From assembly GCA_021081985.1 (NCBI GenBank), contig GCA_021081985.1_3639.1: a stretch of DNA of 64,000 nt; one strand, 5' to 3'. The position numbers and the translations under genes were made by a program. The stretch is from a phage. The number at the start of each line of letters is the position of its first letter. The first letter of the stretch is position 1. Under the pieces are notes generated by a model that was not told the origin of the DNA, made no database searches, and saw only the letters and a list, made by a program, of their open reading frames with translations. Shown piece after piece: positions 9,627-63,978 of the stretch.

Positions 9627-9702
9627 GGCCCCTTAGCTCAGTGGTTAGAGCAGGTGACTCATAATCGCTTGGTCGCTGGTTAAAGTCCAGCAGGGGCCAC
9701 CA
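9627..9702 (+). tRNA. tRNA-Met (CAU)
   Basis: Acceptor GGCCCCT/AGGGGCC, anticodon loop CTCATAA, T-arm GGTTAAAGTCC, encoded CCA. Confidence 0.8.
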
Positions 9703-9754
9703 AATGTGGCACACGAAATAAACTAGGTTTATTGTTTTCGGAGGAGAAAACTTA

Positions 9755-10078
9755 ATGGCTAAGAAACAGTCTGCTAAAAAGGTATCAGCTATCGAGGCGA
9801 TCAAGCAACCTTTTCAGTTTGAATCAAAATCCACGCAGACACATTCTGCACCGCACGATGTGCGTCTTGGTGGCAAAACGCAAACTGTAGCAGTTCTGAA
9901 AAAACGCAAAGATGAAGACGGTAATACTGAAATGTATTATGAATCTGTGTCTCGTGTCATTGGTGGTGAAGTGATTTCTGCTTCCTATCGTATCCGTACT
10001 GGGAAAACAAAGCGTGAACGAGAAGTGAAACAGAAAACAAGCACTCCTGTAGGAAACGTTAAGAAAACTAAAAAATAA
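9755..10078 (+). CDS. hypothetical Lys-rich basic protein
   Basis: 107 aa ORF directly after tRNA-Met. Confidence 0.4.
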   Translation: MAKKQSAKKVSAIEAIKQPFQFESKSTQTHSAPHDVRLGGKTQTVAVLKKRKDEDGNTEMYYESVSRVIGGEVISASYRIRTGKTKREREVKQKTSTPVGNVKKTKK

Positions 10079-10154
10079 TTTACTGACGAGAGTGCCACCG
10101 TGAGCCAGCGTCATTAAACAAAGGGAATCACGGACATTCAGGAGGGTTGAGATT

Positions 10155-10346
10155 ATGATAGGATCTTTGCTTAAGATTGCAAGCGATGTAACAACAACGG
10201 CTGTTGAAGTGACTGCTGCGGTAACAACTCCGTTTGTTGATTTAGCATCAGATGCTATAGCAGCAGCAGACGAGATGATTTTGTCACCGACATCTGATCT
10301 TGTCCAAGATCTTTGTGATTCTATAAAAGATGCTGTAAAAGATTAA
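10155..10346 (+). CDS. hypothetical small acidic protein
   Basis: 63 aa, rich in Asp/Glu/Ala/Thr. Confidence 0.35.
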   Translation: MIGSLLKIASDVTTTAVEVTAAVTTPFVDLASDAIAAADEMILSPTSDLVQDLCDSIKDAVKD

Positions 10347-10354
10347 AATTTTTC

Positions 10355-10383
10355 TTGACATAGTTTTTGTTTTTCTGTATAGT
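10355..10383 (+). promoter_or_regulatory. sigma70-like promoter
   Basis: TTGACA, 17 nt, TATAGT. Confidence 0.55.
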
Positions 10384-10419
10384 TACTTTATCAAAGCTAA
10401 TTTACATAGGAGAGATTGA

Positions 10420-11067
10420 ATGTCTACTAAGATTTCCGTAACTCGTGCACTTGCTTCTATCTCTAAGATTGAAGATAAGATCAATAAGCGCATTTATAAC
10501 CTTGAATGTATTAAGATTGCAAAAGGAACTGAGAATAATTGTAAGATTCCTGGTTATATCGGCTCTGTTGATGATTTTAAGAAATCTGCGATCAACGACT
10601 ATCAAAGTCTGCAAGACCTCTTGGCAGTTCGCGATGAACTGAAGGCAAAAATTGTCAAGTCTAATGCTGAGACAATTGTCAAAATTGGTAAGGTGTCTAT
10701 GACAGTTGCTGAGGCAATCGAACGCAAACGGACGATTTGCTTTAAACAAGAGTTGTTAAACAAACTTTGTGCACAGCGTGCTTCTGCACAGCTTCTTCTG
10801 GCAAAAGAAGAAAAATCTCTGGAAGATAAACTTGAAAATGCCAGAGCGCCATATATCCAACGTGATAAAGCGCCAGATGCAGAGCAGATTAAGACTGTGG
10901 AAGCTCCCATTCGAATGATGAACACACCATCGGTTGTGGATCCTCTTGAACTGGCTTCTAAGATTCGTTCTCTTGAAGAAGAGATTGAAGATTTCTTGTC
11001 TAACGTTGATTTTGCGTTGTCTGAGTCAAACGCTAAGACAGAAATTGAGATTGAGCACTCTCTCTAA
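10420..11067 (+). CDS. hypothetical coiled-coil protein
   Basis: 215 aa, charged and helix-rich. Confidence 0.5.
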   Translation: MSTKISVTRALASISKIEDKINKRIYNLECIKIAKGTENNCKIPGYIGSVDDFKKSAINDYQSLQDLLAVRDELKAKIVKSNAETIVKIGKVSMTVAEAIERKRTICFKQELLNKLCAQRASAQLLLAKEEKSLEDKLENARAPYIQRDKAPDAEQIKTVEAPIRMMNTPSVVDPLELASKIRSLEEEIEDFLSNVDFALSESNAKTEIEIEHSL

Positions 11068-11432
11068 AAGGCTCTGATAATATCATTATCGTTCCTTTGT
11101 TTTGAAATTTAAAACATTGCTTTTGATTAACGAAGTTTACATCATCTTGCCTCCTGGGGATTGGAGGTTAAATATTCCCCACCATGTATCGTATATGTAT
11201 GAGGATAATACAGAACATAGATGCAGCGAGGCACACGAAGATGCTTTGTTGTTTCCACTAAGTAAAAGTTCATACAATAAAGGTCAATGGTTAAATGTGA
11301 AAGATGAAACTTGAAAGTTGACTCTTGAAAGATAAAATTTCGTTTATCATCTGAAATCCTTGACACAGGTTATGGCTCACAAGATATGGTCTGTAAAGCC
11401 TCAAGGCTGTTAATCGGAAGCAATGTCTTATT

Positions 11433-11507
11433 GCTCGTATAGCTCAACGGTAGAGCACCTGCCTTGTAAGCAGGGGGTTGCAGGTTCGAAACCTGCTGCG
11501 AGCACCA
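11433..11507 (+). tRNA. tRNA-Thr (UGU)
   Basis: Acceptor GCTCGTA/TGCGAGC, D-arm GCTC..GAGC, anticodon loop CTTGTAA, T-arm GCAGGTTCGAAACCTGC, CCA. Confidence 0.8.
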
Positions 11508-11509
11508 AT

Positions 11510-11606
11510 GCTGGGTAAGCCCTTTGGCAAGGGCGAGGATTTATAATCCTGAAAATAGACGGGCTAGCCGTTGAATACATAGGTGGTTCGATTCCATCAC
11601 CCAGCC
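11510..11606 (+). ncRNA. non-canonical tRNA-like RNA
   Basis: tRNA-type acceptor (GCTGGGT/ACCCAGC), D-arm and T-arm (GGTGGTTCGATTCCATC), but the anticodon position is a closed hairpin AGGATT-tat-AATCCT followed by a second tight hairpin; about 97 nt, no CCA. Confidence 0.4.
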
Positions 11607-11807
11607 ACAAGTTTGTTTTATAGTGTATTAGCTTATATTATTCGATATAAATGCCTGATCAGCATTTGTTGTGAATGAGGCATACAATGCGTGAGAAAGC
11701 TATCGGTGCGCAACGTTGATTTCAAACGTAGTCATGCTCGTAGAGCACCAACTGTGGAAGTTGGAGGGTGGTTGAGTAACCATACACTATAAAGCATTCT
11801 TTAAAAT

Positions 11808-11892
11808 GGGCGGTGTCCCCACACAAGTCTTCTAAACTTGTACTTAAAAAGTGGGAAGGAAGTGAGAGGTTCGATTCCTCCACCGTCTACCA
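11808..11892 (+). ncRNA. non-canonical tRNA-like RNA
   Basis: 3' end TTCGATTCC...ACCGTCTACCA with a pairing 5' segment GGGCGGT, no D-arm, internal hairpin ACAAGT-cttctaa-ACTTGT. Confidence 0.3.
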
Positions 11893-11968
11893 GATTAACC
11901 CCAACTTGAGAATCGTCAGCGCGGCTCGTAAGACCCACTCTATAGGTTCTCTACCTGGGGTGCTTATT

Positions 11969-12045
11969 GCACGGTTGCCGGAATTTGGTTACGGGTCTGT
12001 CTGCAAAACGGATATATGTCGGTTCAAGTCCGACACCGTGCTCCA
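11969..12045 (+). tRNA. tRNA-Cys (GCA)
   Basis: Acceptor GCACGGT/ACCGTGC, anticodon arm TCTGT-CTGCAAA-ACGGA, T-arm GTCGGTTCAAGTCCGAC, CCA; D-stem imperfect. Confidence 0.65.
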
Positions 12046-12082
12046 AACTTTCAATTTCTTGGCAAATATGTTAAAATACCAC

Positions 12083-12111
12083 TTGACAGATATGTTTTTA
12101 TTTGATAATAT
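12083..12111 (+). promoter_or_regulatory. sigma70-like promoter
   Basis: TTGACA, 17 nt, TAATAT, followed by RBS and ATG at 12132. Confidence 0.6.
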
Positions 12112-12131
12112 CATTAAGTGGGGTTTTTAAA

Positions 12132-12479
12132 ATGGCTACTAAGCAGCTTACAAAACGTAGAAGAGGAAAAGGTCGTCCTCTGAAAGAGGAATCTAATGCA
12201 ATTCAGTTAGAGAAAAATATCCTAGATTTGAAAACGAATCTGATTGCAATGATTCCTGAAGCTCATCAGGTTCTTAGGGATTTGATGAAGAATGTGAATA
12301 CAAAAGACAATATCAGAGAAAATATCGCTCGTTATGTTATTGAGAAAGGTGAGCAGATGCTTTCTGATTACTTTGATGAGGAAAACGAAGAGTTACTCGA
12401 AAAAGATAACTCAGAAAAAGCGCCTATTAAGGCAGCCAAACCATTCTCGACGGATATTGTTCAATTCAAACAAGGTTAA
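12132..12479 (+). CDS. hypothetical protein with basic N-terminus
   Basis: ORF track 12102..12479; start moved to the ATG after the promoter and RBS (MATKQLTKRRRGKGRP...). Confidence 0.45.
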   Translation: MATKQLTKRRRGKGRPLKEESNAIQLEKNILDLKTNLIAMIPEAHQVLRDLMKNVNTKDNIRENIARYVIEKGEQMLSDYFDEENEELLEKDNSEKAPIKAAKPFSTDIVQFKQG

Positions 12480-12480
12480 T

Positions 12481-12570
12481 GTGTCGTTAGACCGTAGGGG
12501 TAGCGGGGGAGACTGTAAATCTCCTGTCTCGAAAGGGACTCGGGTAGTTCGACTCTATCACGGCACACCA
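12481..12570 (+). tRNA. tRNA-Tyr (GUA), type II
   Basis: Acceptor GTGTCGT/ACGGCAC, anticodon arm GGAGA-CTGTAAA-TCTCC, long variable arm, T-arm GGTAGTTCGACTCTATC, CCA. Confidence 0.75.
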
Positions 12571-12638
12571 ACTAAATCTGTACTGGCTTTGATGTGTGAC
12601 GATACCCTCCAATCGTGGTTGTTGGGTCAGTACAGTTT

Positions 12639-12714
12639 GGGAGTGTAGATCAGTTAGTAGATCGCTCGACCGATAATCGAGAGGACGTAGGGGCAGAGCC
12701 TACCACTCCCACCA
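12639..12714 (+). tRNA. tRNA-Ile (GAU)
   Basis: Acceptor GGGAGTG/CACTCCC, D-arm GATC..GATC, anticodon arm CTCGA-CCGATAA-TCGAG, CCA; position 33 is C and the T-loop is atypical. Confidence 0.6.
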
Positions 12715-12719
12715 AATAT

Positions 12720-12794
12720 GCATCCATAGTTTAATTGGGAAAACTACAGCCTTCCAAGCTGAAGTCGAGGGTTCGATGCCCTCTGGATGCTCCA
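12720..12794 (+). tRNA. tRNA-Gly (UCC)
   Basis: Acceptor GCATCCA/TGGATGC, anticodon loop CTTCCAA, T-arm GAGGGTTCGATGCCCTC, CCA. Confidence 0.75.
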
Positions 12795-12919
12795 GTTAAA
12801 AGATGTCAATGAAATCCGCTTGGGTCAACTGAAGACCGTAACAAATTCCATGGGGTTGTGTTTGCGGTCCAACCCTAGACATCTTCTATCTTTAGTAGAA
12901 GGCTTTAATACGGACGAGT

Positions 12920-13150
12920 ATGATGGTTTCTAAATTAATCATAACAAGGCATCATAATGCTAAAGAAATAGAGATTGTGAATGCTGCTGGCACTCTTGTG
13001 CTAAAAGTTGGTAAAGACTGTCCTTTTGAATTGTGCCAGAAGGAACTTTTAAGTTTGTGCGGTTTCAGGTTTAAACAGATTATCTTTGAAAATGCTTTTC
13101 AATATTCAGACTTAAACCAGTACATTATATCTAGGCTTGATCCTGCATGA
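12920..13150 (+). CDS. hypothetical small protein
   Basis: 76 aa ORF, 4-nt overlap with the next gene. Confidence 0.35.
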   Translation: MMVSKLIITRHHNAKEIEIVNAAGTLVLKVGKDCPFELCQKELLSLCGFRFKQIIFENAFQYSDLNQYIISRLDPA

Positions 13151-13704
13151 GATACTTGAAATATTTATCTTGGATCCTGTTAGCACCTCTTGATCCAATT
13201 ATGTCGGCTCTCTGTGTTATTCTGGCTCCTTTTGTTGTTCCGTTCTATAATGAGAAGACAGGGCATCTACCCTATATTTTCAGGTGGATGGAAACATATG
13301 ATAATCCTATAGACGGTGACAGAGGACACATAGAGAGATGGGAAGAAGTCCGTAAAATAGGAAGTTTTGGTGTTTACCTACAACGAGTTGCTTGGTTGTG
13401 GAGAAATAAAGCCTACAATTTTTCCTATCACGTACTTGGACGTGAAATCGCATCTGTGACAAAGTGGAAAGGAAACATCCATGTAAGCTCTGATGTGGAG
13501 GATAATCAACAAGGCTATTTGTTGATGTGGAATGACAATGCGTGGGGTGTATTCGCGTTTGTCCCGTCTTTTAGATTGTTTGGAAAACAATTTTACTGGC
13601 GAATTTATGTCGGTTGGAAACTGAAGAGTGTGGTTCCTGAAGACAGAGCTTTTTCAAGAGAGAGGGTGATGTTGGCATTTTTCATAAGTCCTTTCCGAAA
13701 ATAG
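13147..13704 (+). CDS. hypothetical membrane protein
   Basis: 185 aa, hydrophobic N-terminal segment LSWILLAPLDPIMSALCVILAPFVVPF. Confidence 0.45.
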   Translation: MRYLKYLSWILLAPLDPIMSALCVILAPFVVPFYNEKTGHLPYIFRWMETYDNPIDGDRGHIERWEEVRKIGSFGVYLQRVAWLWRNKAYNFSYHVLGREIASVTKWKGNIHVSSDVEDNQQGYLLMWNDNAWGVFAFVPSFRLFGKQFYWRIYVGWKLKSVVPEDRAFSRERVMLAFFISPFRK

Positions 13705-13710
13705 TTTTTA

Positions 13711-13792
13711 ATGAGAGTAGCGTAACTTCACTGGGTGAAGGCTGGCCTCCAAAACCAGTGACTAAGAGGTTCGATTCCTCACTCTCGTGCCA
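13711..13792 (+). tRNA. tRNA-like, possibly tRNA-Trp (CCA)
   Basis: Acceptor ATGAGAG/CTCTCGT, loop CTCCAAA, T-arm GAGGTTCGATTCCTC, CCA; D-region is over-long and non-canonical. Confidence 0.4.
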
Positions 13793-13793
13793 A

Positions 13794-13869
13794 AGGGGAT
13801 TAGCATAGTGGCCTAATGCAACGGGCTTTGACCCCGTGATCGGTTGTTCGAATCAACCATCCCCTGCCA
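13794..13869 (+). tRNA. tRNA-Gln (UUG)
   Basis: Acceptor AGGGGAT/ATCCCCT, D-arm GCAT..ATGC, anticodon arm ACGGG-CTTTGAC-CCCGT, T-arm GGTTGTTCGAATCAACC, CCA. Confidence 0.8.
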
Positions 13870-13878
13870 AGTTAAAAC

Positions 13879-13968
13879 GGAGAAGCAAATCGATTGGCGA
13901 CGAAACCACATTGGAAATGTGCTGACTGGTAAAACGGCTTGAGAGTTCGATTCTCTCCTTCTCCACCA
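13879..13968 (+). tRNA. tRNA-Ser (GGA), type II
   Basis: Acceptor GGAGAAG/CTTCTCC, anticodon loop TTGGAAA, long variable arm, T-arm GAGAGTTCGATTCTCTC, CCA. Confidence 0.7.
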
Positions 13969-13982
13969 GTTTTTAAGGATTT

Positions 13983-14726
13983 ATGTATGCACTCTCCCCA
14001 AGAAAAAAAAATGGAAAACAGATATTTAATTTGTTGAAAAGCGGAAAAGGCTTCTCAAACCCGCTTCAATCAGGTCTTTCTCTGGTTGGTGGTAAAGTAA
14101 GTAGTCTATCTTCTTTATCTTCCTCTATTTCTTCGGTAACTAACCCAGCTATAAAGGCTCAATTAGCTGCCGCAGGTTTGACAACTGGCGTTTTATCAAA
14201 TTTTACTTCGTCTCTTGGTTCTGTTACAAGCACGACAAAAACGCTTGTTGATTATGGTCAGAAATCTGTTGAAGAGTTCTCCCAAAGAATGCACGCAGCG
14301 AGTAATTATATGAGTACTCTGAGCAGAATGGGAGAAAAGACAAGTTGTTCAATATTTAGTGACGTTATGTCTGTAGCCACTGATTTAGGTAAGAAAGCTA
14401 TGGATGCCGTTAATTCCGCGATGGATGCGGTGAACGATGTTATGTCTCAATTGCAAGATGCAATAAATAAGGGTTTGAATACAATATCTAGTTTGGCGAG
14501 TAAAGCTGTCTCAGCGATAAACAAAGGGATCCAGAAAATGTCTGAGTATGCTAGCCAAGTGACAAAGATGATTGAAGATGAAGCAAAGAAGTTGGCAGAC
14601 TACTTAAAGACAAGTGCTGAAGGATTTCTCGCAGATATCCTACCTGATTGGTTTAACGATTCTTGTAAATCTGGTATAGTTGACCAGATTGCTACACCAG
14701 AGATGAAAGAAGTTCTTAAAAAGTAA
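13983..14726 (+). CDS. hypothetical protein with Ser/Thr-rich N-terminus and amphipathic helical repeats
   Basis: 247 aa; repeated AMDAVN/SAINKG-type helices. Confidence 0.5.
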   Translation: MYALSPRKKNGKQIFNLLKSGKGFSNPLQSGLSLVGGKVSSLSSLSSSISSVTNPAIKAQLAAAGLTTGVLSNFTSSLGSVTSTTKTLVDYGQKSVEEFSQRMHAASNYMSTLSRMGEKTSCSIFSDVMSVATDLGKKAMDAVNSAMDAVNDVMSQLQDAINKGLNTISSLASKAVSAINKGIQKMSEYASQVTKMIEDEAKKLADYLKTSAEGFLADILPDWFNDSCKSGIVDQIATPEMKEVLKK

Positions 14727-14728
14727 TT

Positions 14729-14822
14729 GGAAGATTAACCCTAATTTGGTAAGGGGTCTCCCTGCTAAGGAGATAGTAACCCAGAAATGGGTGTGCCAGT
14801 TCAAGTCTGGCATCTTCCTCCA
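14729..14822 (+). tRNA. tRNA-Ser (GCU), type II
   Basis: Acceptor GGAAGAT/ATCTTCC, anticodon arm TCTCC-CTGCTAA-GGAGA, long variable arm, T-arm GCCAGTTCAAGTCTGGC, CCA. Confidence 0.75.
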
Positions 14823-14901
14823 CTGTATGTCAAGGCTCAGATTTCTTCGGACCTGGGCGTTCGCCTTTGTTGGGTGTATATTCTCGGCAGAGGCTATCTT
14901 T

Positions 14902-14990
14902 GGAGGCTGGGGTGCATGGTGCACAAGCTGGTTTGAACCCAGTCCCGCTGTAGAGATATGGTGACAGTTCGATTCTGTCAGCCTCCTCCA
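14902..14990 (+). tRNA. tRNA-Ser (UGA), type II
   Basis: Acceptor GGAGGCT/AGCCTCC, anticodon arm GCTGG-TTTGAAC-CCAGT, long variable arm, T-arm GACAGTTCGATTCTGTC, CCA. Confidence 0.7.
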
Positions 14991-15213
14991 AGTTATCTTT
15001 AATGTAGCTTGTTTAGTTGCTTGGTGTGATTTTTCGGTGGATGGCTGCAACCATCTTATCGATACCCCAGAGCAGTCCGCTCTTTACTGGCGTAAGCCAA
15101 ACACTTATGATGGTCATGTAATCGTAATCTATCATTAGTGTGCTCTCCCTGGAGAGCTGTTGCGTATAGCTAATTATTGTGTGAGTAATTAGCTATTTTA
15201 AAGATAATTTGAC

Positions 15214-15290
15214 GGATCTGTAGCCAAATGGTTTAAGGCACTCGACTTTTAATCGAGAGATTGTTGGTTCGAATCCAACCAGATCCACCA
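15214..15290 (+). tRNA. tRNA-Lys (UUU)
   Basis: Acceptor GGATCTG/CAGATCC, anticodon arm CTCGA-CTTTTAA-TCGAG, T-arm GTTGGTTCGAATCCAAC, CCA. Confidence 0.85.
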
Positions 15291-15299
15291 AAATATTCA

Positions 15300-15390
15300 G
15301 GTTCTTTGACCGAGTGGTCGATGGTGACGGCCTGTTAAGCCGTTGGGAGGAATCTCCCCACCGAAGGTTCGAATCCTTCAGGAACCGCCA
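15300..15390 (+). tRNA. type II tRNA with GUU anticodon (nominally Asn)
   Basis: Acceptor GGTTCTT/AGGAACC, anticodon arm ACGGC-CTGTTAA-GCCGT, 19-nt variable arm with hairpin GGGAG/CTCCC, T-arm GAAGGTTCGAATCCTTC, CCA. Confidence 0.55.
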
Positions 15391-15474
15391 ATTCTTGACT
15401 TAATCAAGTCACAGATATCACCTAGCCAGCGATACCAGTTAGTAGATTCTGGGACAATTAAAATCTACATTTCT

Positions 15475-15552
15475 CTGTCCGTAGCGCAGCTTGGGTAGCG
15501 CGGGTCACTTGGGATGATCAGGTCGTTGGTTCAAATCCAACCGGACAGACCA
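15475..15552 (+). tRNA. tRNA-Pro (UGG)
   Basis: Acceptor CTGTCCG/CGGACAG, D-arm GCGC..GCGC, anticodon arm GGTCA-CTTGGGA-TGATC, T-arm GTTGGTTCAAATCCAAC, CCA. Confidence 0.8.
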
Positions 15553-15594
15553 ATAAACATATACATATCAAAGCAGAAATGTACAGAGGATACC

Positions 15595-15786
15595 ATGTTA
15601 ACAGTTAAAGTCGTATCTCCAAATGATGAACAAATTTTTTGTGGGAAAATTGTTGGGTATTGTGCTCATCAAAAGTCTATAGCTATTTCAGGTATTGACC
15701 AAAAAGTGTTTTTGTCTGAGGATCAGACCGCTTATGTGATCAATGCCAATGGAAAAACTATTTCTGTGTATCGTGGAAAACCGTAA
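15595..15786 (+). CDS. hypothetical small protein
   Basis: ORF track 15514..15786 begins inside tRNA-Pro; internal Met (MLTVKVV...) taken as start. Confidence 0.3.
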   Translation: MLTVKVVSPNDEQIFCGKIVGYCAHQKSIAISGIDQKVFLSEDQTAYVINANGKTISVYRGKP

Positions 15787-15800
15787 CTCTTAATATAAAT

Positions 15801-15877
15801 GGGCGATTGATGGAATTGGTATACATGTCAGGCTTAGAACCTGAATTTTGGGGGTTCGAGTCCCTCATCGCCTACCA
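15801..15877 (+). tRNA. type I tRNA with UAG anticodon (nominally Leu)
   Basis: Acceptor GGGCGAT/ATCGCCT, anticodon arm TCAGG-CTTAGAA-CCTGA, 5-nt variable loop, T-arm GGGGGTTCGAGTCCCTC, CCA. Confidence 0.55.
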
Positions 15878-15882
15878 ATTAT

Positions 15883-15958
15883 GTGACGGTAACTCAGTTG
15901 GTAGAGTGCCTTGCTGAAGACTAGGTGGTCACAGGTTCGAATCCTGTCCGTCACACCA
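15883..15958 (+). tRNA. tRNA-Phe (GAA)
   Basis: Acceptor GTGACGG/CCGTCAC, D-arm ACTC..GAGT, anticodon loop CTGAAGA, T-arm ACAGGTTCGAATCCTGT, CCA. Confidence 0.75.
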
Positions 15959-16486: not shown

Positions 16487-17848
16487 AAGATGTTGCATGT
16501 TTTCAAAAAAGAAGATTTTCAAAGAGAGTATGACATTTTGTGCTCTTTTATACCAAAAGGTGTTTATGATTTATTGTCAAAGCTGGATGTTAAGATAGCT
16601 GGCGGTGCAATAACCTCTTTGTTCTCTAATAGTAAAGTCAACGATCTTGATTTGTATTTCCCATCTTGGGAAAGCCTTGAGATATTCATTGCGTACATGA
16701 TGGATAAAAGACTCTTGTCAGGGAAATATGATTTGTCTAAGAAAACAAATGGCTGGGCGTCAGATCAAAAAATAGCATTTAGGCATTTCTATAAACTTGA
16801 TCACGGTGATCCAGCATTTTCAAATTTTACAGATCCTCTTTCTATAGGTAGAGAATATGACAATGAATACGATTATTTATGTGATGAAGATGATAATTTG
16901 CCAACCATGAAAAAGGTTGGTGTGACAGATAAGAGTGTGATGTTTTACTTTGGACAAGAGCCTGTCTTTCAATGTGTGGCTGTGGATGTGTTCAAAACAA
17001 CAGAAGACATCTTTAGCAAATTTGATTTTACAATAAATATGGGTGCTTTTAACTTCAAAGATGGTGTGTGGGAATTTAATAGCAATTTCTTAAAACATAT
17101 TGCTCAAAGAGTTTTGGTTGTAAATCATAAAACTGAATACCCGATTATGTCACTTTTGAGATCTGAAAAATACAAATCTCGTGGCTATACAATTTCGAAA
17201 AAAGAGACAATGAAACTGGCTATGACCATTGCTAACCTTCAGATAGAAGGTTGGGAATCGGCAAAGTCACATCTTAGCGGGATGTACGGAATGAAACTGT
17301 CAGATATTTTTGATGAGACAAAACAGTTTTCACTTGATTCTTTGGTTGAGTGCCTAGACAGATTAGAATCTTGTTGCCAGCAGGTAGACAAAAATGTTAC
17401 CCCTGTGCAACCGTTGCCGTTTAATGATGTATCTAAAGTTAATATGTTTAATATTTTTCAAAGATTAAGAAAAGCAACAGGCAGGAAATACTTTACAAAA
17501 CTATATGGGGTTTGTCCTGCTGAAGTTTTCTATCTTATGATGCCAACAAAAGATACACATTATGTTGGGCTTTACAAAGAAGATATAGCAAATAATTTTC
17601 CCACTCTCAGACTTTATGTTGATGAGAAGAAGGCAAGAGAATATTACGAATACCTGTGTGAGTGTGGTAAGACAGATGGTTATGGATGCCTAATGTATAA
17701 ACCTGGGGCAGTTCTCTTAGATGTCTCAATAAGTGATCCATCTAAGATGCAATACGATATCATAACTGATGAGATTAATATTTATGAAAACAGAAAAACA
17801 ACATTGAAAATTGAAAACATTATTGTGTGTGATGGGGATATATCATGA
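16487..17848 (+). CDS. hypothetical protein, possible Pol-beta-type nucleotidyltransferase fold
   Basis: ORF track 16409..17848 starts inside the terminator; likely start is ATG at 16487 with RBS AAGGAT. N-terminal GGAITSLFSNSKVNDLDLYF fits the G[GS]-x9-13-DxD signature. Confidence 0.45.
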   Translation, partial: KMLHVFKKEDFQREYDILCSFIPKGVYDLLSKLDVKIAGGAITSLFSNSKVNDLDLYFPSWESLEIFIAYMMDKRLLSGKYDLSKKTNGWASDQKIAFRHFYKLDHGDPAFSNFTDPLSIGREYDNEYDYLCDEDDNLPTMKKVGVTDKSVMFYFGQEPVFQCVAVDVFKTTEDIFSKFDFTINMGAFNFKDGVWEFNSNFLKHIAQRVLVVNHKTEYPIMSLLRSEKYKSRGYTISKKETMKLAMTIANLQIEGWESAKSHLSGMYGMKLSDIFDETKQFSLDSLVECLDRLESCCQQVDKNVTPVQPLPFNDVSKVNMFNIFQRLRKATGRKYFTKLYGVCPAEVFYLMMPTKDTHYVGLYKEDIANNFPTLRLYVDEKKAREYYEYLCECGKTDGYGCLMYKPGAVLLDVSISDPSKMQYDIITDEINIYENRKTTLKIENIIVCDGDIS

Positions 17849-18246
17849 TATGGTTTAAAACGCTGTTAACTTTCTTTTCTAGGAACATAAAACAGATAGG
17901 TGTTGTTTTGTGTTGTGTGGTTCTCGTCTGTGGTATCTTGGGGATAAAACATTGGTATAATGACCAGTTAACATCGTCCTACAACGCAGGTGTCAGCGAC
18001 ACGGATCTTAAATGGGAGAGGATTAACCAGCAAGTTAGAGATCACAACAACGCTTTTAAAAAACAACAGCAGGATAAGATCGATGAGTTGTCAACCATGT
18101 TGGTGAAAGAGAGAGAAATTAATAACCAACTGAAAGAAGACCTTGATAAAAAGGTTAAAAGTTATAGCAAAACACAAGCAGGAAAACAGGTTTGCCTCGA
18201 TAACCAGTTTGTTGATATCTATAACGACAGTTTGGGGTCTAAATGA
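17845..18246 (+). CDS. i-spanin-like protein
   Basis: 133 aa; N-terminal transmembrane helix then charged coiled-coil; 4-nt overlap with a lipoprotein gene. Confidence 0.5.
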   Translation: MIWFKTLLTFFSRNIKQIGVVLCCVVLVCGILGIKHWYNDQLTSSYNAGVSDTDLKWERINQQVRDHNNAFKKQQQDKIDELSTMLVKEREINNQLKEDLDKKVKSYSKTQAGKQVCLDNQFVDIYNDSLGSK

Positions 18247-18536
18247 AAAAGTATGTTATCATGGTTCCTTTTCTATTGTTTATGTTAACAGGGTGCACTT
18301 CACCACCTGAGAGAGTTGTTCCTGTTGCAAAAGAGATCATAATAAGCGATATCCTAGCAAGACCACCCGCTGAAGCTATGATACCACCGAAAGAACCTGA
18401 AAAATTGCCAGGTGGTCTTAGTAATGCAGATGCTATCGAGGTGATTAAGAAAAACAACATTAAGGCTGCTGAAGATCGTATGAAATTAAGAACGTTACAG
18501 CAGTATGTAAAGACAATATTTTCTTCAGACAAATAG
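18243..18536 (+). CDS. o-spanin-like outer-membrane lipoprotein
   Basis: 97 aa; signal peptide with lipobox LTGC, Pro-rich mature region. Confidence 0.55.
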   Translation: MKKYVIMVPFLLFMLTGCTSPPERVVPVAKEIIISDILARPPAEAMIPPKEPEKLPGGLSNADAIEVIKKNNIKAAEDRMKLRTLQQYVKTIFSSDK

Positions 18537-18577: not shown

Positions 18578-18631
18578 CGTGATTCGTGGTAAACTACCTC
18601 CTATGGTAGGAATAGAAAATATGGAGGTCTT

Positions 18632-19978
18632 TTGAGTAAAGTATTTGGACCTGCCAGTCCTAAACAAAAAATGATTTTGGAGAGTAAAGCCCAAATTCTA
18701 ATAATTGGCGGGGCCGCCGGGTGTTTGTCTAAAGACCACGAGGTGTTGACACCATCTGGCTGGATTAAGATATCAGAATGGTCAGGACAGGACATTCTGC
18801 AATATGATAAAGCCACTGGGGAGGCTAAATTTATCCCTCCTTTAGAGTTTGTTAAACTCCCTTGTGAAAAACTTACAAGAATAGAAGGTAATGGTATTTG
18901 TCAAGAGCTATCTGACGAACATACTGTGATTTATAAACCAGACTATAAATCACAGCCAAGAACACTTTCTTTTTCTGAAGTGGCAGAAAGACATAACAAC
19001 TCTGTTAAAAAAGGTTGGACAGGTAAGTTCATAACTACATTTAACTATGATGGGCCTGGGATAGACATGACAGAAGGGGAATTAAGGCTTCAGGTTGCTG
19101 TCATGGCTGATGGGAGAGTTGTTAAAGAAGGGAAAGATAATTATACACAGATGCGCTTTGCTAAAAAGCGTAAATATGACCGCTTAATCGAACTTTGTAA
19201 AAAGTTTGGATTAAGATATGAAGATAGAGGATCAAAACCCAGTGAAAGATATACCACTGGGGAACAGTACGAGGTCATTGTATGGCCTAAATATCCTGAT
19301 AAAAAATTTACAGAGAAATACTATCAGTGTTCAAATGAACAACTGGAGATAATACTTGATGAGATTTTTCATTGGGATGGTTCTTTTTGTAAGCCATATG
19401 GCGGTAAAACACATAATAGCTTTACAGGTAGATATTTTACTGCTCATAAGACGAACGCTGATTTTGTTCAGTTTATAGGATCTTCTCTTGGTTATAATAC
19501 CACCATAAGCCATGATACAAGAAGTGGAAAGGACAGTTATACTGTTAATATTATGGCTAGAGGAAAAGGATTAAGGTCACTGGCTAATAAAGACAGAAAA
19601 GCTGAGTTTAAAGAGTTTATACCTACGGATGGGTTTAAATACTGCTTTGTAACACAAACAGGTTTCTTTGTTACCAGACTAGAAGATTGTGTGGTTGTCA
19701 CTGGGAATAGTGGAAAATCATATCTCCTACAATTGATGCCGCTTGCTTATGTCGATGACCCGCAGACAGCATGTATAATGTTTCGTAGGACAACACCTCA
19801 ATTGACAGGTGCAGGTGGACTTTTTGATACAGCGAAAAGTATTTATTTGCAACTCGATAAGGAATGGAAGCCGAAGTTCAGGGAGAAAGCTCTGGAAGCA
19901 ATTTTCCCATCTGGGGCAAAGGTGTTGTGGAGACACATGGAGTATGAGAATAACAAATTAGATCATCAGGGTGAATAG
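18632..19978 (+). CDS. terL: terminase large subunit, 5' part (N-extein, intein, C-extein segment)
   Basis: TTG start with RBS GGAGG; Walker A split as IIGGAAG | intein | SGKSYLL; translation stops at 19978 where the putative intron begins. Confidence 0.75.
   Translation: MSKVFGPASPKQKMILESKAQILIIGGAAGCLSKDHEVLTPSGWIKISEWSGQDILQYDKATGEAKFIPPLEFVKLPCEKLTRIEGNGICQELSDEHTVIYKPDYKSQPRTLSFSEVAERHNNSVKKGWTGKFITTFNYDGPGIDMTEGELRLQVAVMADGRVVKEGKDNYTQMRFAKKRKYDRLIELCKKFGLRYEDRGSKPSERYTTGEQYEVIVWPKYPDKKFTEKYYQCSNEQLEIILDEIFHWDGSFCKPYGGKTHNSFTGRYFTAHKTNADFVQFIGSSLGYNTTISHDTRSGKDSYTVNIMARGKGLRSLANKDRKAEFKEFIPTDGFKYCFVTQTGFFVTRLEDCVVVTGNSGKSYLLQLMPLAYVDDPQTACIMFRRTTPQLTGAGGLFDTAKSIYLQLDKEWKPKFREKALEAIFPSGAKVLWRHMEYENNKLDHQGE
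18722..19708 (+). mobile_element. intein in terminase P-loop (329 aa), with LAGLIDADG-like endonuclease motifs
   Basis: Begins CLSKDHEVLT (block A-like Cys1), ends VVVTGN followed by Ser+1; internal LQVAVMADGRV and LDEIFHWDGS; flanking residues reconstitute GGAAGSGKS. Confidence 0.7.
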
Positions 19979-21162
19979 CTTGCCCTTCGTGCCTATAACG
20001 GTGGAACTCCCTATGGGAAAATACCGTGCCACAGAATATGGAAATATAAAATCTGGGTGTAACGACTATCTCCGATGAGTGTAGGAGAGTAGAATCACAA
20101 GCGATTGGTGATCCAAACGGCACGCCAAGGATGGAAGATATAGTCTGTTCCACATGGAAACATGTGGCGGGTGTTTTAGCACACCGCCTCAGTGTAGCGA
20201 ACTGAGGGGACAATAAGTTGCAGTATACCTTTATAGGTTTTGATGAGGGTTGGTATTAGCTCTCTTTAAACCTCCCTAATTGTCGGGGAAACCTTTATTG
20301 TTTACATAACCAAGCAAATGTGGTAACATGTTTGTGGCCTACACTAACTATGTAGGGTATGGTAATATCATGTAAAATTAGGTAATCCGCAGCGAAGCAT
20401 CCCTATGGGATGAACGTTCAACGACTATCGCTTACGGGCGTTAGGGCCAAGCGGTGAGGGAAACCTCCAGTCTTTCAGACTGCCGAAATGGGAGGATATT
20501 TGCGTAATAATATTAAAAAATGTGTTGACTGCCATAGAGAACTTCCTCTTGATAAATTTTTTCTTTCATCAAAAAGTAGTGATGGATATTCTGGAGCTTG
20601 TAAAGAATGCTACATGTATTATAGACTTAACAACTCCAGAAAGAATAAGGATATGATTAAGAAAGAGGATGCTGCCATGTTTATACAAGATTTGGTATCA
20701 TCTGGTGAACTTTTCGAATGCAAAACTTGCCGTAAGAAGTTTTTAGCTGATAATTTTTATACTAAGAGAGATTATGGTAAAGTGTATCTTGCAACAAATA
20801 GATGTAAAAGATGTGAAAAGTTTTACCAAATAGAGAGAAAGTTTGGCATCTCTGAGGAATATTACTTTTCAATGTTGGAAAGGCAGGGGTTTAAGTGCGA
20901 GATATGTAAAATACCTTTGGAAGATTATAAAAATCAAGGGTATAGAGATTTTTTCTCCGTAGATCATGACCATAAGACAGGGAAGATTAGAGGTTTGTTA
21001 TGCGATAAGTGTAACAGGGCTTTGGGATTTTTCGGAGAAAATGAGGAAACACTTTTAAATGCCGCAGAATATATACGCAAATATAAGATATAGTCTGGTC
21101 TGCATGGTGACATGCAGCAGCACGTAGTGGTGCGGGATAAGAGTAGCGATCTTATCTGAACA
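19979..21162 (+). mobile_element. putative group I intron carrying an HNH homing endonuclease ORF
   Basis: Non-coding structured flanks around the HNH ORF; 38-nt core (20383-20420) and 3' segment (21114-21162) nearly identical to sequences in the DNA polymerase interruption; terminase frame reopens right after an in-frame TGA at about 21160. Boundaries approximate. Confidence 0.5.
20488..21093 (+). CDS. HNH homing endonuclease
   Basis: 201 aa; Cys-rich N-terminus and HNH motif SVDHDHKTGKIRGLLCDKCN. Confidence 0.8.
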   Translation: MGGYLRNNIKKCVDCHRELPLDKFFLSSKSSDGYSGACKECYMYYRLNNSRKNKDMIKKEDAAMFIQDLVSSGELFECKTCRKKFLADNFYTKRDYGKVYLATNRCKRCEKFYQIERKFGISEEYYFSMLERQGFKCEICKIPLEDYKNQGYRDFFSVDHDHKTGKIRGLLCDKCNRALGFFGENEETLLNAAEYIRKYKI

Positions 21163-21240
21163 AAAACGACACAATTCACATGGTCACAGATAGATTATCT
21201 GATATCTCGTCTACGTTCAAACTCTAAATATCCGAGCAGG

Positions 21241-22281
21241 ATGGTTATCTCTTGTAACCCTGATCCAGATCATAAGATTAAAGAGTTGATTTCTTGGTAT
21301 TTAGACGATGAGGGGTATCCTATACCTGAACGTGACGGGGTGATTAGATGGTTTATAAGACGTGACGGGGAGTTTATCTGGGGTGAATCAGAGCAAGAAT
21401 TAATTGAAAAGTATTGGGATGGCAAGGATGAGAAAAGAAAGCCTAAACCACTTTCATTTTCCTTCATTTCCGCAACAATATTCGATAATCCTCCCATGCT
21501 GGAGAATAACCCAGATTATCTAGCATTCCTTGAAGGTCTTCCAGAGGTAGAAAAAGCCCAGTTATTGCATGGAAACTGGAACGCAAGACCTGAAGGGGCA
21601 AACTATTTCCAGAGATCTTATTTAAAAGAGGTTCCCTGCTTACCTCTCGGTGTTGTATCTGTTCGTCCGTATGATAAAGCAGGTACAGAAAGAACATCTG
21701 GAAACAGATATCCTGACTTTACAGCATCTGTTAAGGTAAGTAAAGACAATGATGGTTTTTACTACTTGTCTGGTGATTATTGTCCTGAATTTTTTGATGA
21801 TGGTAGATATTCGACTCAAACGCAGGGAAGATTCTGTAAAAAAGCTGGGGAACGTGATGTTATCATTAAGAAACAGGCTTATTTTGATGGTGATGATGTC
21901 ACCATAATTTTCAGTGTTGACCCAGGACAAGCAGGAATAAGTGAATTTTTAACAAGCTCCCGTGAACTAATAGCGGAAGGGTTTACAGTAGAAAAAGATC
22001 CTACACCAAGCAATAAATCAAAATTAACACGATTCACACCGTTTGCAAAACTTGCTCAAGCAGGTATGGTGAGAATAGTTCGTGATAGTTTTGATCCTAA
22101 AACTTATGAAGCCCTTATGACAGAGCTTGAAAAGTTCAATGGGGAAAGGAGTACTACGACAAGAAAAGACGATTGGGTCGACGCCATTTCTTCTGGGATA
22201 AATTATCTTGAAAAAGAAGAAATAGTCAAACCTGTTGTTATTCCAAAAATTGTAGCTCCTACCTTGTATAAAAGAATATAA
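21241..22281 (+). CDS. terL: terminase large subunit, 3' part
   Basis: 346 aa from first ATG; reading frame is open upstream to about 21163, so the true exon probably starts there without its own start codon. Confidence 0.7.
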   Translation: MVISCNPDPDHKIKELISWYLDDEGYPIPERDGVIRWFIRRDGEFIWGESEQELIEKYWDGKDEKRKPKPLSFSFISATIFDNPPMLENNPDYLAFLEGLPEVEKAQLLHGNWNARPEGANYFQRSYLKEVPCLPLGVVSVRPYDKAGTERTSGNRYPDFTASVKVSKDNDGFYYLSGDYCPEFFDDGRYSTQTQGRFCKKAGERDVIIKKQAYFDGDDVTIIFSVDPGQAGISEFLTSSRELIAEGFTVEKDPTPSNKSKLTRFTPFAKLAQAGMVRIVRDSFDPKTYEALMTELEKFNGERSTTTRKDDWVDAISSGINYLEKEEIVKPVVIPKIVAPTLYKRI

Positions 22282-62875: not shown

Positions 62876-63178
62876 TTAGTGGGAATCTGCCCATGTGTAT
62901 CCACAAAGATATTCTCCTGTAATTAAAACGGGAAGCCCCATTATCTTAGATGCTTTTTCTACACATTTTGTTGCAAGCTCTCCTACTGGGCAATGCAGTA
63001 TCCTGTATTTCCCATACACATCAGGTTCAACAATAACTTTACCTGCTTTCACATAATGCCCGTCGAAACGATGACCTTTTTCAAGCATCATGTCTACATA
63101 GCTTTGTGCAGCCTCTAAGTTAGAATGCTCCGTTATTGATTTAAATCTTTCCGGTACTTGTACCTGTATCTCATCCAT
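62876..63178 (-). CDS. family A DNA polymerase, C-terminal part (motif C to C-terminus)
   Basis: Begins MDEIQV (HDE-like motif C region) and ends GYTWADSH, matching the Pol I C-terminal WxxAH pattern; frame is open upstream of the first ATG. Confidence 0.7.
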   Translation of the reverse strand: MDEIQVQVPERFKSITEHSNLEAAQSYVDMMLEKGHRFDGHYVKAGKVIVEPDVYGKYRILHCPVGELATKCVEKASKIMGLPVLITGEYLCGYTWADSH

Positions 63179-63184
63179 CAGTTC

Positions 63185-63444
63185 AGAGAGTTCGTTACGC
63201 TCTCCCGCACCATTACGTGCATAGCCACAAGATTTCTCCTGTGGGTCGGACTATTTCATCCTCCTAATGTTAAGGAGGCCTCCCGTTTCGACCGCACTTG
63301 CTGGCCTACTCTACTCGCTTTCACATTACTAGTGTGCTTTCGATAGTCTCTGAACGTTCATCCCGTAGGGATGCTTCGCTGCGGATTAGCATATTGAACT
63401 TTTACCACTTTTACGTATAAAAGTCAACTTAGCCTTCCCGTCAA
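63185..63444 (-). mobile_element. putative ORF-less group I intron in DNA polymerase gene
   Basis: About 260 nt non-coding insert between the motif B and motif C exons; contains a 38-nt core (63351-63388) nearly identical to the terminase intron. Boundaries approximate. Confidence 0.5.
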
Positions 63445-63978
63445 TTAAAGAGGTTTTCGACATGCATTACTGCATGAAGCCACAATTTGTTTATGGTAGT
63501 AGATAACCCTCCTGACACCTTGGTCGTACCATCCCCGTTTTACCAATTCCCAATGGAACAGGACTCCCATGAGGTCAAACAATGAAGCACCACCGTTTTG
63601 TTGGTAAGCATTCAGCAGAGAATGTTTAGAACGAGTCCAAATTTTACGCCCGTCCATGCCTGGAATATAGCGTCTGCCATTTGCCTCCCAGAATTTTTCC
63701 AACCACTCTCTACGCATTTTCAACCCGAAGTTACTATCCCAGAATGCGTCTATTACAGCCTGTGCTCTATTAAGGGGGATACCCAGCATTGCGGCTATCT
63801 TAGGAGCTTGTGCTCCATACATAATTCCATACGTAACCCCCTTTCCTCCAGAGCGTGTTACCTCCTTTCCTGCTGCTATTGTGTATGCTCTTGCGTTTCG
63901 TTCATGGGCATCCTCTTCCATCATGATACGTAAATACTCACCACCGTCAAACTCAAAAGCCCCTGCCGCTGCAATCAT
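63445..63978 (-). CDS. family A DNA polymerase, upstream part containing motif B (ORF-track fragment; N-terminal region beyond first ATG and window edge not assessed)
   Basis: TRSGGKGVTYGIMYGAQAPK matches Pol A motif B (R..K..YG..YG). Confidence 0.7.
   Translation of the reverse strand: MIAAAGAFEFDGGEYLRIMMEEDAHERNARAYTIAAGKEVTRSGGKGVTYGIMYGAQAPKIAAMLGIPLNRAQAVIDAFWDSNFGLKMRREWLEKFWEANGRRYIPGMDGRKIWTRSKHSLLNAYQQNGGASLFDLMGVLFHWELVKRGWYDQGVRRVIYYHKQIVASCSNACRKPL

Follow-up and report, generated by a model that had tools for sequence, protein, structure and literature searches.

Terminases are favoured intein targets in phages, and inteins in the P-loop of the large terminase subunit (TerL) are known (PMC4760082, PMC5050341). 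The mycobacteriophage TerL1-a and TerL1-b inteins (Kelley et al. 2016, PMC5050341) occupy the Walker A loop of TerL and many carry a LAGLIDADG domain; splicing and endonuclease activity have been shown for some mycobacteriophage TerL inteins, and the penultimate histidine is often lost in phage inteins (PMC5050341). A terminase gene can also hold both an intein and a homing-endonuclease intron, as in Campylobacter phage vB_CcoM-IBB_35 (PMC3322345), and splicing of a TerL intron was shown by reverse transcription PCR in Certrevirus CB7, a member of the Vequintavirinae (PMC7344957). The AceL NrdHF intein is a fast, proven class 3 intein in which Cys124, at position 4 of block F (F:4), is essential and both assisting histidines are absent (PMC7891396, Hoffmann et al. 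2020); its motif residues are Ala1, Ser65-x-x-His68, Met70, Cys124, Thr144-Gly145-Asn146 and Ser+1 (PMC7891396). Here, the TerL gene was analyzed in a 64,000-nt stretch of phage DNA, referred to below as the window (GenBank assembly GCA_021081985.1, contig GCA_021081985.1_3639.1). The nearest records were Avunavirus phages of the Vequintavirinae (18-1-2, 19-1-2, 24-2-1 and vB_EcoM_TH18 at approximately 98%, Av-05 at 93%), and the source phage is an Avunavirus-like, rV5-related coliphage. Its TerL gene holds an insert in Walker A that is, with high confidence, a genuine intein capable of splicing by a route of some class.

The insert is encoded within a plus-strand open reading frame (ORF) at 18632..19978, the 448-aa product of which reads MSKVFGPASPKQKMILESKAQILIIGGAAG, then CLSKDHEVLT...DCVVVTGN, then SGKSYLLQLMPL. 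Positions 18722-19708 translate into exactly 329 codons without a stop, the first being Cys (TGT) and the last Asn (AAT), and stand in frame between G30 and S31 of Walker A (GGAAG·SGKS, where the dot marks the junction). Upstream, the N-extein M1-G30 (exon 1, 18632..18721, plus strand) begins with a TTG start preceded by a GGAGG Shine-Dalgarno sequence and ends with the first Walker A half, GGAAG; its N-terminus, MSK.FGP.S.KQ, is common to the window TerL and the annotated TerL starts of SSE121, rV5_ev156 and CR8. Downstream, the exon 1 part of the C-extein, S31...HQG (19709..19972, plus strand), opens with SGKS. Deletion of the insert in silico yielded GGAAGSGKS, which fits the Walker A pattern G-x4-G-K-S. 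An initial annotation of this DNA had described a terminase P-loop interrupted at 18722-19708 by a 329-aa insert running from Cys to Asn, the removal of which rebuilds GGAAGSGKS; translation bears out the coordinates, the residues and the restored motif.

The 448-aa ORF is only part of the terminase, as its reading frame is closed by a TAG within the first codons of a group I intron that starts at 19973. Removal of the intein and of two introns gave a TerL of 499 aa, which aligned with the TerL of Salmonella phage SSE121 over 499 of 499 residues with 431 identities (86%) and 0 gaps. The spliced protein matched the Pfam families Terminase_6N (PF03237, 1.3e-24, profile positions 1-213 of 215) and Terminase_6C (PF17289, 1e-7), while the unspliced ORF had no Pfam match at all. 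A T4-type terminase architecture, comprising an ATPase with Walker A and B and an RNaseH-like nuclease, was recovered only after intein and intron removal. Because the spliced protein aligns without gaps to SSE121 TerL and four relatives read through the site uninterrupted, the insert is not a chance feature, and its boundaries, Cys1 to Asn329 (18722..19708, plus strand), are exact to the residue. The GC profile was uninformative, showing only a mild dip across the intein (0.33-0.40, compared with 0.40-0.46 in the adjoining exon and intron RNA cores). Minus-strand ORFs at 18601-18816, 19331-19513, 19727-19936 and 19878-20213 (60-111 aa) were set aside as unsupported mechanical ORFs.

Intein-free terminases are the norm among relatives. 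SSE121, rV5_ev156, CR8 and navn read IIGGAAGSGKS(Y/F)LLQLMPL without an insert, and with the spliced N-terminal 272 aa as query, 1393 of 1438 phage TerL matches covered at least 80% in one place. The initial annotation had suggested a search for intein-free relatives and had named, as the finding that would speak against an intein, related terminases holding the same residues as a normal domain; the search was carried out and all four relatives lacked the insert. An intein 98.8% identical to that of the window is present in four cultured lytic isolates, and the same structure occurs in many metagenome and Logan contigs. A search of the window for a further TerL, intein or intron endonuclease found none. 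Three intein states were observed at the same TerL Walker A site, namely full-length with an endonuclease (the window, 18-1-2 and family member P0002), with a deleted or decayed endonuclease (Av-05 and P0013, 241 aa; P0016, 240 aa), and a mini-intein of 152 aa (P0018). All stages of the classical homing cycle are thereby present at one TerL site. Furthermore, intein and extein identities were discordant, at 77% versus 62% for P0002, whose TerL exteins are rV5-type, and 42% versus 77% for P0018. A related phage contig in Logan (ERR5001971, ERR5003250) has a 152-aa mini-intein at this Walker A site; its TerL also has two endonuclease-containing interruptions (Endonuclease_7 and HNH_3), and the third gene upstream of TerL belongs to the Gad2 family.

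The same element was found in unrelated proteins. A search with the insert alone recovered other TerL proteins, a PhoH/AAA_19 protein (GTGPAG·C...TGN·CGKT), a toprim-helicase and KaiC/DnaB-like ATPases with the junction TGN·SGIGKST. Among deposited phage genomes the insert matched 279 records, including the primase/helicase of Pseudomonas phage KIL1-5, which holds a 43% identical intein (GSASG·C...TGN·TGKST) and is annotated in KIL1 as a two-piece join of coding sequence (CDS), the RtcB of Bacillus phage BCP8-2 (VDIG·C...TGN·CGME), and RecD-like, PhoH-like and RNA-ligase genes. A profile of ten intein-only sequences run against 1.84 billion sequences yielded 7293 cluster representatives at E<=1e-3, with 678 at E<=1e-30. 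Residue counts given here refer to 161 full-length copies taken from the best 150 of these 7293 representatives; 122 of the 161 copies sit at G·xGKS or G·xGKT, the same Walker A position. The family is very large, mostly phage-borne and P-loop-targeting.

The AlphaFold2 model of the 329 aa had a mean predicted local distance difference test score (pLDDT) of 90.3 and a predicted template modelling score (pTM) of 0.89. The top Foldseek matches of the whole model in the PDB were TliVMA (7qsu, E 8.6e-14, template modelling score (TM) 0.65), PhoVMA, PI-SceI and PI-PfuI; the central part matched I-DmoI, I-Tsp061I and I-SceI (E 4e-6 to 1e-4), and BIL domains and the hedgehog autoprocessing domain also appeared across the Foldseek searches of this model and of a mini-intein model described below. 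In the model, a LAGLIDADG endonuclease is nested within a HINT splicing domain. This arrangement is shared with PI-SceI, TliVMA and PI-PfuI (1VDE, 7QSU and 1DQ3; Foldseek E 8.6e-14 to 4e-10), in which the LAGLIDADG domain likewise lies between blocks B and F of HINT, although these inteins are only 9-13% identical, have an Asp-type block F and a penultimate His, and reside in V-ATPase and ribonucleotide reductase genes of archaea and yeast. A single-sequence search of the PDB with the insert returned nothing significant; clear answers came only from the family profile and from structure prediction.

The nested endonuclease domain spans approximately residues 109-295 (19046..19606, plus strand), the segment lacking in the natural mini-intein P0018, and is supported by the Foldseek matches to LAGLIDADG enzymes. 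Its first LAGLIDADG motif, LRLQVAVMADG, occupies residues 121-131 (19082..19114, plus strand) with the putative catalytic Asp130, and the second, LEIILDEIFHWDG, occupies residues 208-220 (19343..19381, plus strand) with the putative catalytic Asp219. In the model the corresponding helices (118-130 and 205-215) each run into a strand. Both aspartates are kept in 158 of 161 members, suggesting the endonuclease is under selection. LAGLIDADG homing endonucleases are characterised by two such helices, each closing with a catalytic acidic residue, in an alpha-beta-beta-alpha-beta-beta-alpha pseudo-dimer, and the two motifs, their aspartates and the Foldseek matches agree with this. The Pfam model LAGLIDADG_3 (PF14528) gave only a weak match below threshold (14.1 bits against a gathering cut-off of 22.5, E 0.058). 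Two LAGLIDADG-like segments had been noted in the initial annotation and both are present; the suggestion that the insert is a homing-endonuclease intein finds further support in the intein-free alleles, the unrelated hosts, the HINT and LAGLIDADG fold and the junction residues.

The splicing motifs are strongly conserved across the family. Block A (residues 1-13, CLSKDHEVLTPSG; 18722..18760, plus strand) opens with Cys1, the candidate N-terminal nucleophile, which is Cys in 160 of 161 copies. Block B (residues 58-71, GICQELSDEHTVIY; 18893..18934, plus strand) contains Ser64 at B:7 (Ser, Cys or Thr in 159/161), His67 at B:10 (His in 159/161), Thr68 at B:11 and Val69 at B:12, a position held by Val, Ile, Phe, Leu or Met and by Trp in none of the 161. 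The block B signature T-x-x-H is present as the variant S64-D-E-H67; SDEHTV stands opposite SPNHRM of AceL in the profile alignment to PDB entry 6zgq, and SxxH is functional in AceL NrdHF (PMC7891396). Block F (residues 305-320, FKYCFVTQTGFFVTRL; 19634..19681, plus strand) includes Cys308 at F:4, invariant in 161/161, and Arg319, kept in 160/161. Block G, VVVTGN, together with the +1 Ser codon AGT (19688..19711, plus strand), supplies Thr327 at G:5 (Thr or Ser in 159/161), the penultimate Gly328 at G:6 (Gly in 156/161) and Asn329 at G:7 (Asn in 161/161). The TGN terminus is found in 141 of 161 members, and the +1 residue is Ser in 87, Cys in 53 and Thr in 21.

On balance, these results favour a functional, mobile, endonuclease-containing intein that homed into the Walker A DNA of TerL and splices by a route initiated at Cys1. 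Expression would begin with self-splicing of the two group I introns, as their intron signatures and the existence of intron-less alleles suggest, giving the mature TerL mRNA. Translation would then produce an 828-aa precursor, and because GGAAG and SGKS would lie 329 residues apart in it, the precursor could not bind ATP. The HINT domain would excise itself and G30 would be ligated to S31, giving the 499-aa active packaging ATPase-nuclease with the predicted junction peptide AQILIIGGAAGSGK. Since TerL is essential and the four cultured isolates carry the intein, the protein must be made in these phages, and HINT excision with ligation appears to be required. The view in the initial annotation that packaging ATPase activity depends on protein splicing is supported by the split P-loop; it was incomplete in that RNA splicing of two group I introns was overlooked. 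That annotation was likewise sound as to the intein itself, and missed the absent penultimate His, the absent block-F Asp and the class 3 identity of the nearest solved relative.

Within this scheme, the first N-S acyl shift would be performed by Cys1 with help from Ser64 and His67, the acyl group would then move to Ser+1, and cyclisation of Asn329 would free the intein. A first step at Cys1 is favoured because this residue is near-invariant. The missing penultimate His may be offset by Thr327, Arg319 and the block-B residues, and the invariant Cys308 may stand in for the block-F Asp as an essential assisting residue. In a co-infection, the LAGLIDADG domain would cut intein-less TerL at the DNA encoding GGAAG·SGKS, and repair would copy the intein into the break, as suggested by residue conservation and by the distribution of the element. 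A candidate target, GGN GGN GCN GCN GGG·TCN GGN AAA TC, is found in SSE121, rV5 and CR8 TerL, and intein-less TerL DNA of the SSE121 and rV5 types reads GGNGGNGCNGCNGGG followed across the insertion point by TCNGGNAAATC. The +1 Ser codon is AGT in the window versus TCN in intein-less alleles, consistent with an altered target site in the occupied allele.

Several observations weigh against this Cys1-initiated reading. The closest solved relative, AceL NrdHF, has Ala1 and uses its block-F Cys first (PMC7891396); because that Cys is its obligate starting nucleophile, the Cys1-first route is not secure here. The class 1 assisting residues Asp F:4 and His G:6 are absent, being replaced by Cys308 and Gly328, although both are typical of class 1 rather than obligatory, and a penultimate Gly splices efficiently in a phage class 1 intein, Bethlehem RDF (PMC5050341). 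No curated intein model matched the insert at E<=0.01 in Pfam or at E<=1 in NCBIfam, and ten family members searched against Pfam at E<=10 matched no intein model; these misses reflect model sensitivity and not a defining biochemical feature. In addition, we infer splicing of this particular protein from the viability of the isolates and from conserved residues, and the activity of the endonuclease and its target site are likewise predictions.

A functional intein in which Cys308 acts as a covalent nucleophile, by a class 3-type or relay route, is a serious alternative that we hold more tentatively. Cys308 could be the residue that first attacks the N-terminal scissile bond, in the class 3 manner, or it could take the acyl group from a Cys1 thioester and pass it to Ser+1, so that two successive thioesters would form; a related possibility is a Cys1-Cys308 disulfide serving as a redox gate of splicing. 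Conservation agrees with such a role, as Cys at F:4 exceeds even Cys1 and is accompanied by the highly conserved Thr or Ser at G:5 and Gly at G:6. The assignment of Cys308 to F:4 rests on spacing, invariance and full-length structural superposition. A 48-aa C-terminal query intended to align blocks F and G with AceL NrdHF returned only 3C proteases at E of approximately 1, i.e. chance, and a query with the mini-intein sequence aligned to AceL NrdHF over the N-terminal half alone. The distance from Cys308 to Asn329 is 21 residues, identical to the 21 residues from Cys124 to Asn145 in the class 3 Mch and Mle DnaB inteins (PMC7664689, PMC5222942). Of the class 3 signature WCT (Trp B:12, Cys F:4, Thr G:5), two of the three residues occur here, the triplet reading VCT (Val69, Cys308, Thr327), and the proven class 3 AceL NrdHF reads MCT (PMC7891396). 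Ser or Thr at +1, a class 3 trait (PMC2807308), is found in 108 of 161 copies.

The AceL NrdHF intein (PDB entry 6zgq) was the only significant PDB sequence match of the family profile (E 3e-8). The mini-intein from the same TerL site, modelled with a pLDDT of 92.8, had this experimentally splicing intein as its closest solved structure, and the splicing-domain model superposed on it over the full length (TM 0.81, root-mean-square deviation 2.5 Å, E 1.6e-9), with an E-value approximately 1000-fold better than for any other intein. Both inteins have Ser at B:7 and His at B:10 (SxxH), a non-Trp hydrophobic residue at B:12, Cys at F:4, Thr-Gly-Asn at the C-terminus and Ser+1, and both lack His at F:13 and G:6; AceL NrdHF is also of phage-like origin, and its Cys124 is essential (PMC7891396). 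In contrast, AceL NrdHF has Ala1 where the window intein and nearly all relatives have Cys, is naturally split without an endonuclease, and resides in a ribonucleotide reductase beta-subunit gene beside a GIY-YIG gene, whereas the window intein is contiguous, carries a LAGLIDADG domain and occupies a Walker A loop.

Other features argue against a Cys308 nucleophile. Class 3 is defined by the lack of an N-terminal nucleophile, with which the WCT signature co-varies (PMC2807308), whereas position 1 of this family is a near-invariant Cys, which would be unexpected if that residue were dispensable. Trp never occurs at B:12. Canonical class 3 inteins (MP-Be DnaB, Msm and Mch DnaB-1) do share Cys F:4, Thr G:5, Ser or Thr at +1 and the 21-residue spacing, are also phage-associated and are frequent in P-loop helicases. 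They differ, however, from the window intein with its Cys1, its lack of Trp B:12 and its penultimate Gly in place of His, and the canonical MchDnaB-1 structures appeared only at approximately rank 40 (TM 0.53-0.60).

The family combines the class 1 nucleophile (Cys1) with that of class 3 (Cys F:4, along with Thr G:5), whereas its only solved relative, a proven class 3 intein, has lost Cys1. It is also possible, though less likely than not, that Cys1 and Cys308 both act covalently, as a relay or as alternative entry points, which would amount to a hybrid or transitional splicing mechanism. Class 3 has been proposed to arise from a 'standard phage intein' by loss of the N-terminal nucleophile, according to Tori & Perler as cited in PMC3196547. 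If the hybrid mechanism were true, this intein would be a living representative of that ancestral 'standard phage intein'. No description of the Avunavirus or Av-05 TerL intein, of the KIL1 inteins or of inteins with both nucleophiles was found in the literature.

That the insert is dead, either as a retained domain within a working TerL or as a pseudogene with packaging provided otherwise, is improbable. The absence of a matching curated intein model and of the penultimate His would suit such a case, and prophage remnants are known to hold intein pseudogenes that no longer work (PMC3196547). However, 329 residues here part GGAAG from SGKS inside the nucleotide-binding loop, the junction and catalytic residues are all intact and strongly conserved, relatives function without the insert while four cultured lytic isolates carry it, there is no second TerL in the window to provide packaging, and AceL NrdHF with the same atypical residues splices within minutes (PMC7891396). 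A permanent insertion domain was rejected because intein-less alleles exist and unrelated proteins carry the same element. An assembly or annotation artefact, i.e. a chimeric join or a misread free-standing endonuclease gene, finds its only support in GenBank relatives that label the region 'terminase large subunit' in three pieces without an intein, and can be dismissed almost entirely: one open frame runs from the TerL start through the insert and back into TerL, which rejects a free-standing endonuclease gene between split TerL genes, the boundaries are exact to the residue, and the structure recurs at 98.8% identity in four independent phage records and in numerous metagenome and Logan contigs, which rejects an assembly artefact.

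The favoured Cys1-initiated intein shares its gene with two group I introns. Intron 1 (19973..20217, plus strand) is 245 nt long, contains no ORF and directly follows ...KLDHQG; the in-frame TAG that ends the 448-aa ORF lies two codons into it. Intron 2 (20251..21168, plus strand) is 918 nt long and contains a homing-endonuclease ORF. Matches to Rfam RF00028 were obtained at 19917-20167 for intron 1 (34.5 bits, E 1.1e-6) and for the 5' and 3' parts of intron 2 at 20223-20578 (40.0 bits, E 2.5e-8) and 20907-21117 (29 bits, E 5e-5), all of which are under the gathering score of 50 with E-values far from chance. The 5' exons end in U (U19972 and U20250, the former marking the 5' splice site of intron 1) and the introns end in G (G20217 and G21168). 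The predicted junction of exons 1 and 2 is contiguous over 24/24 positions in Av-05, which is without intron 1, and that of exons 2 and 3 over 23/24 in phage 18-1-2, which is without intron 2. Between the introns lies exon 2 (20218..20250, plus strand), only 33 nt long, which encodes LQYTFIGFDEG and with it Walker B (FIGFDE). Exon 3 (21169..22281, plus strand, stop included) encodes TQFTW...KRI, the rest of the ATPase and the RNaseH-like nuclease (Terminase_6N and Terminase_6C).

The ORF of intron 2 (20488..21093, plus strand) encodes a 201-aa endonuclease VII-type homing endonuclease of the HNH superfamily (Pfam PF02945, 4.7e-20; PHROG endonuclease VII matches down to 8e-33), with N-terminal Cys-rich zinc-finger-like repeats and a stop codon inside the conserved GAUAUAGUC core element. 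Phage 18-1-2 shares intron 1 and carries a distinct HNH-containing intron at a later site, after ...SFISATI; at the position of intron 2, navn also has an intron, which includes an endonuclease ORF. Intron content is polymorphic among near-identical phages, since the 98%-identical 18-1-2 lacks intron 2 and has the other HNH intron. Public annotation of relatives (OK136180, KM190144 and KU130126 examined) splits TerL into two or three CDSs, each named 'terminase large subunit', and contains no intein or intron features; the records of 18-1-2, TH18 and Av-05 label the region as fragments of this subunit only, and the annotated Av-05 CDS extends into an intron.

A single TerL gene thus holds three selfish elements, with an intein inside Walker A and an intron on either side of the Walker B exon. 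In comparison with IBB_35 and CB7, the window TerL has two introns together with an intein and a 33-nt Walker B exon between the introns, and no intein has been reported in CB7 TerL. The mycobacteriophage TerL1 proteins, compared here by description, belong to Terminase_1 rather than Terminase_6, and TerL1-a separates the invariant Lys from Thr; the window intein is inserted three residues upstream, between G and S-G-K-S. What is less ordinary here is the clustering of three elements around Walker A and B and a hybrid catalytic signature in a large family that escapes the curated models.

Other features of the window include a further group I intron at approximately 63176-63502 on the minus strand (Rfam 78.7 bits, E 2.5e-18), in a family A DNA polymerase gene, where it splits the catalytic HDE motif, separating ...VIYYH from DEIQVQV. 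Klebsiella phages Iguana_ER37 and NDO71 and Raoultella phage Ro1 have the predicted spliced junction uninterrupted, whereas it is split in 18-1-2-like phages. When translated, the 5' end of the polymerase intron reads IVASCSNACR, similar to the translated 5' end of the downstream TerL intron of 18-1-2. Rfam further identified a cluster of 13 tRNA genes on the plus strand at 9627-15955, ahead of the packaging module. Just upstream of TerL, a small gene at 17845-18246 (plus strand), whose orthologue in phage navn is annotated as i-spanin, overlaps a small gene at 18243-18536 (plus strand) that starts MKKYVIMVPFLLFMLTGC, a lipoprotein signal suggesting an o-spanin; the navn orthologue of the latter is annotated 'putative large terminase subunit', probably wrongly.

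The correct TerL model for this phage consists of three exons and one intein giving 499 aa, of which public records show fragments only. Phage phylogenies and predictions of packaging strategy commonly rely on TerL, and unrecognised inteins and introns corrupt both. Three independent selfish elements reside in one essential gene, each at a catalytic motif, and near-identical phages carry different combinations of them, so that homing, the turnover of elements and their competition in co-infection can be studied in one small natural system, the TerL locus. Furthermore, the family supplies natural sequences by the thousand that pair Cys1 with a block-F Cys, and may yield fast, His-independent inteins for protein engineering, as AceL NrdHF did.

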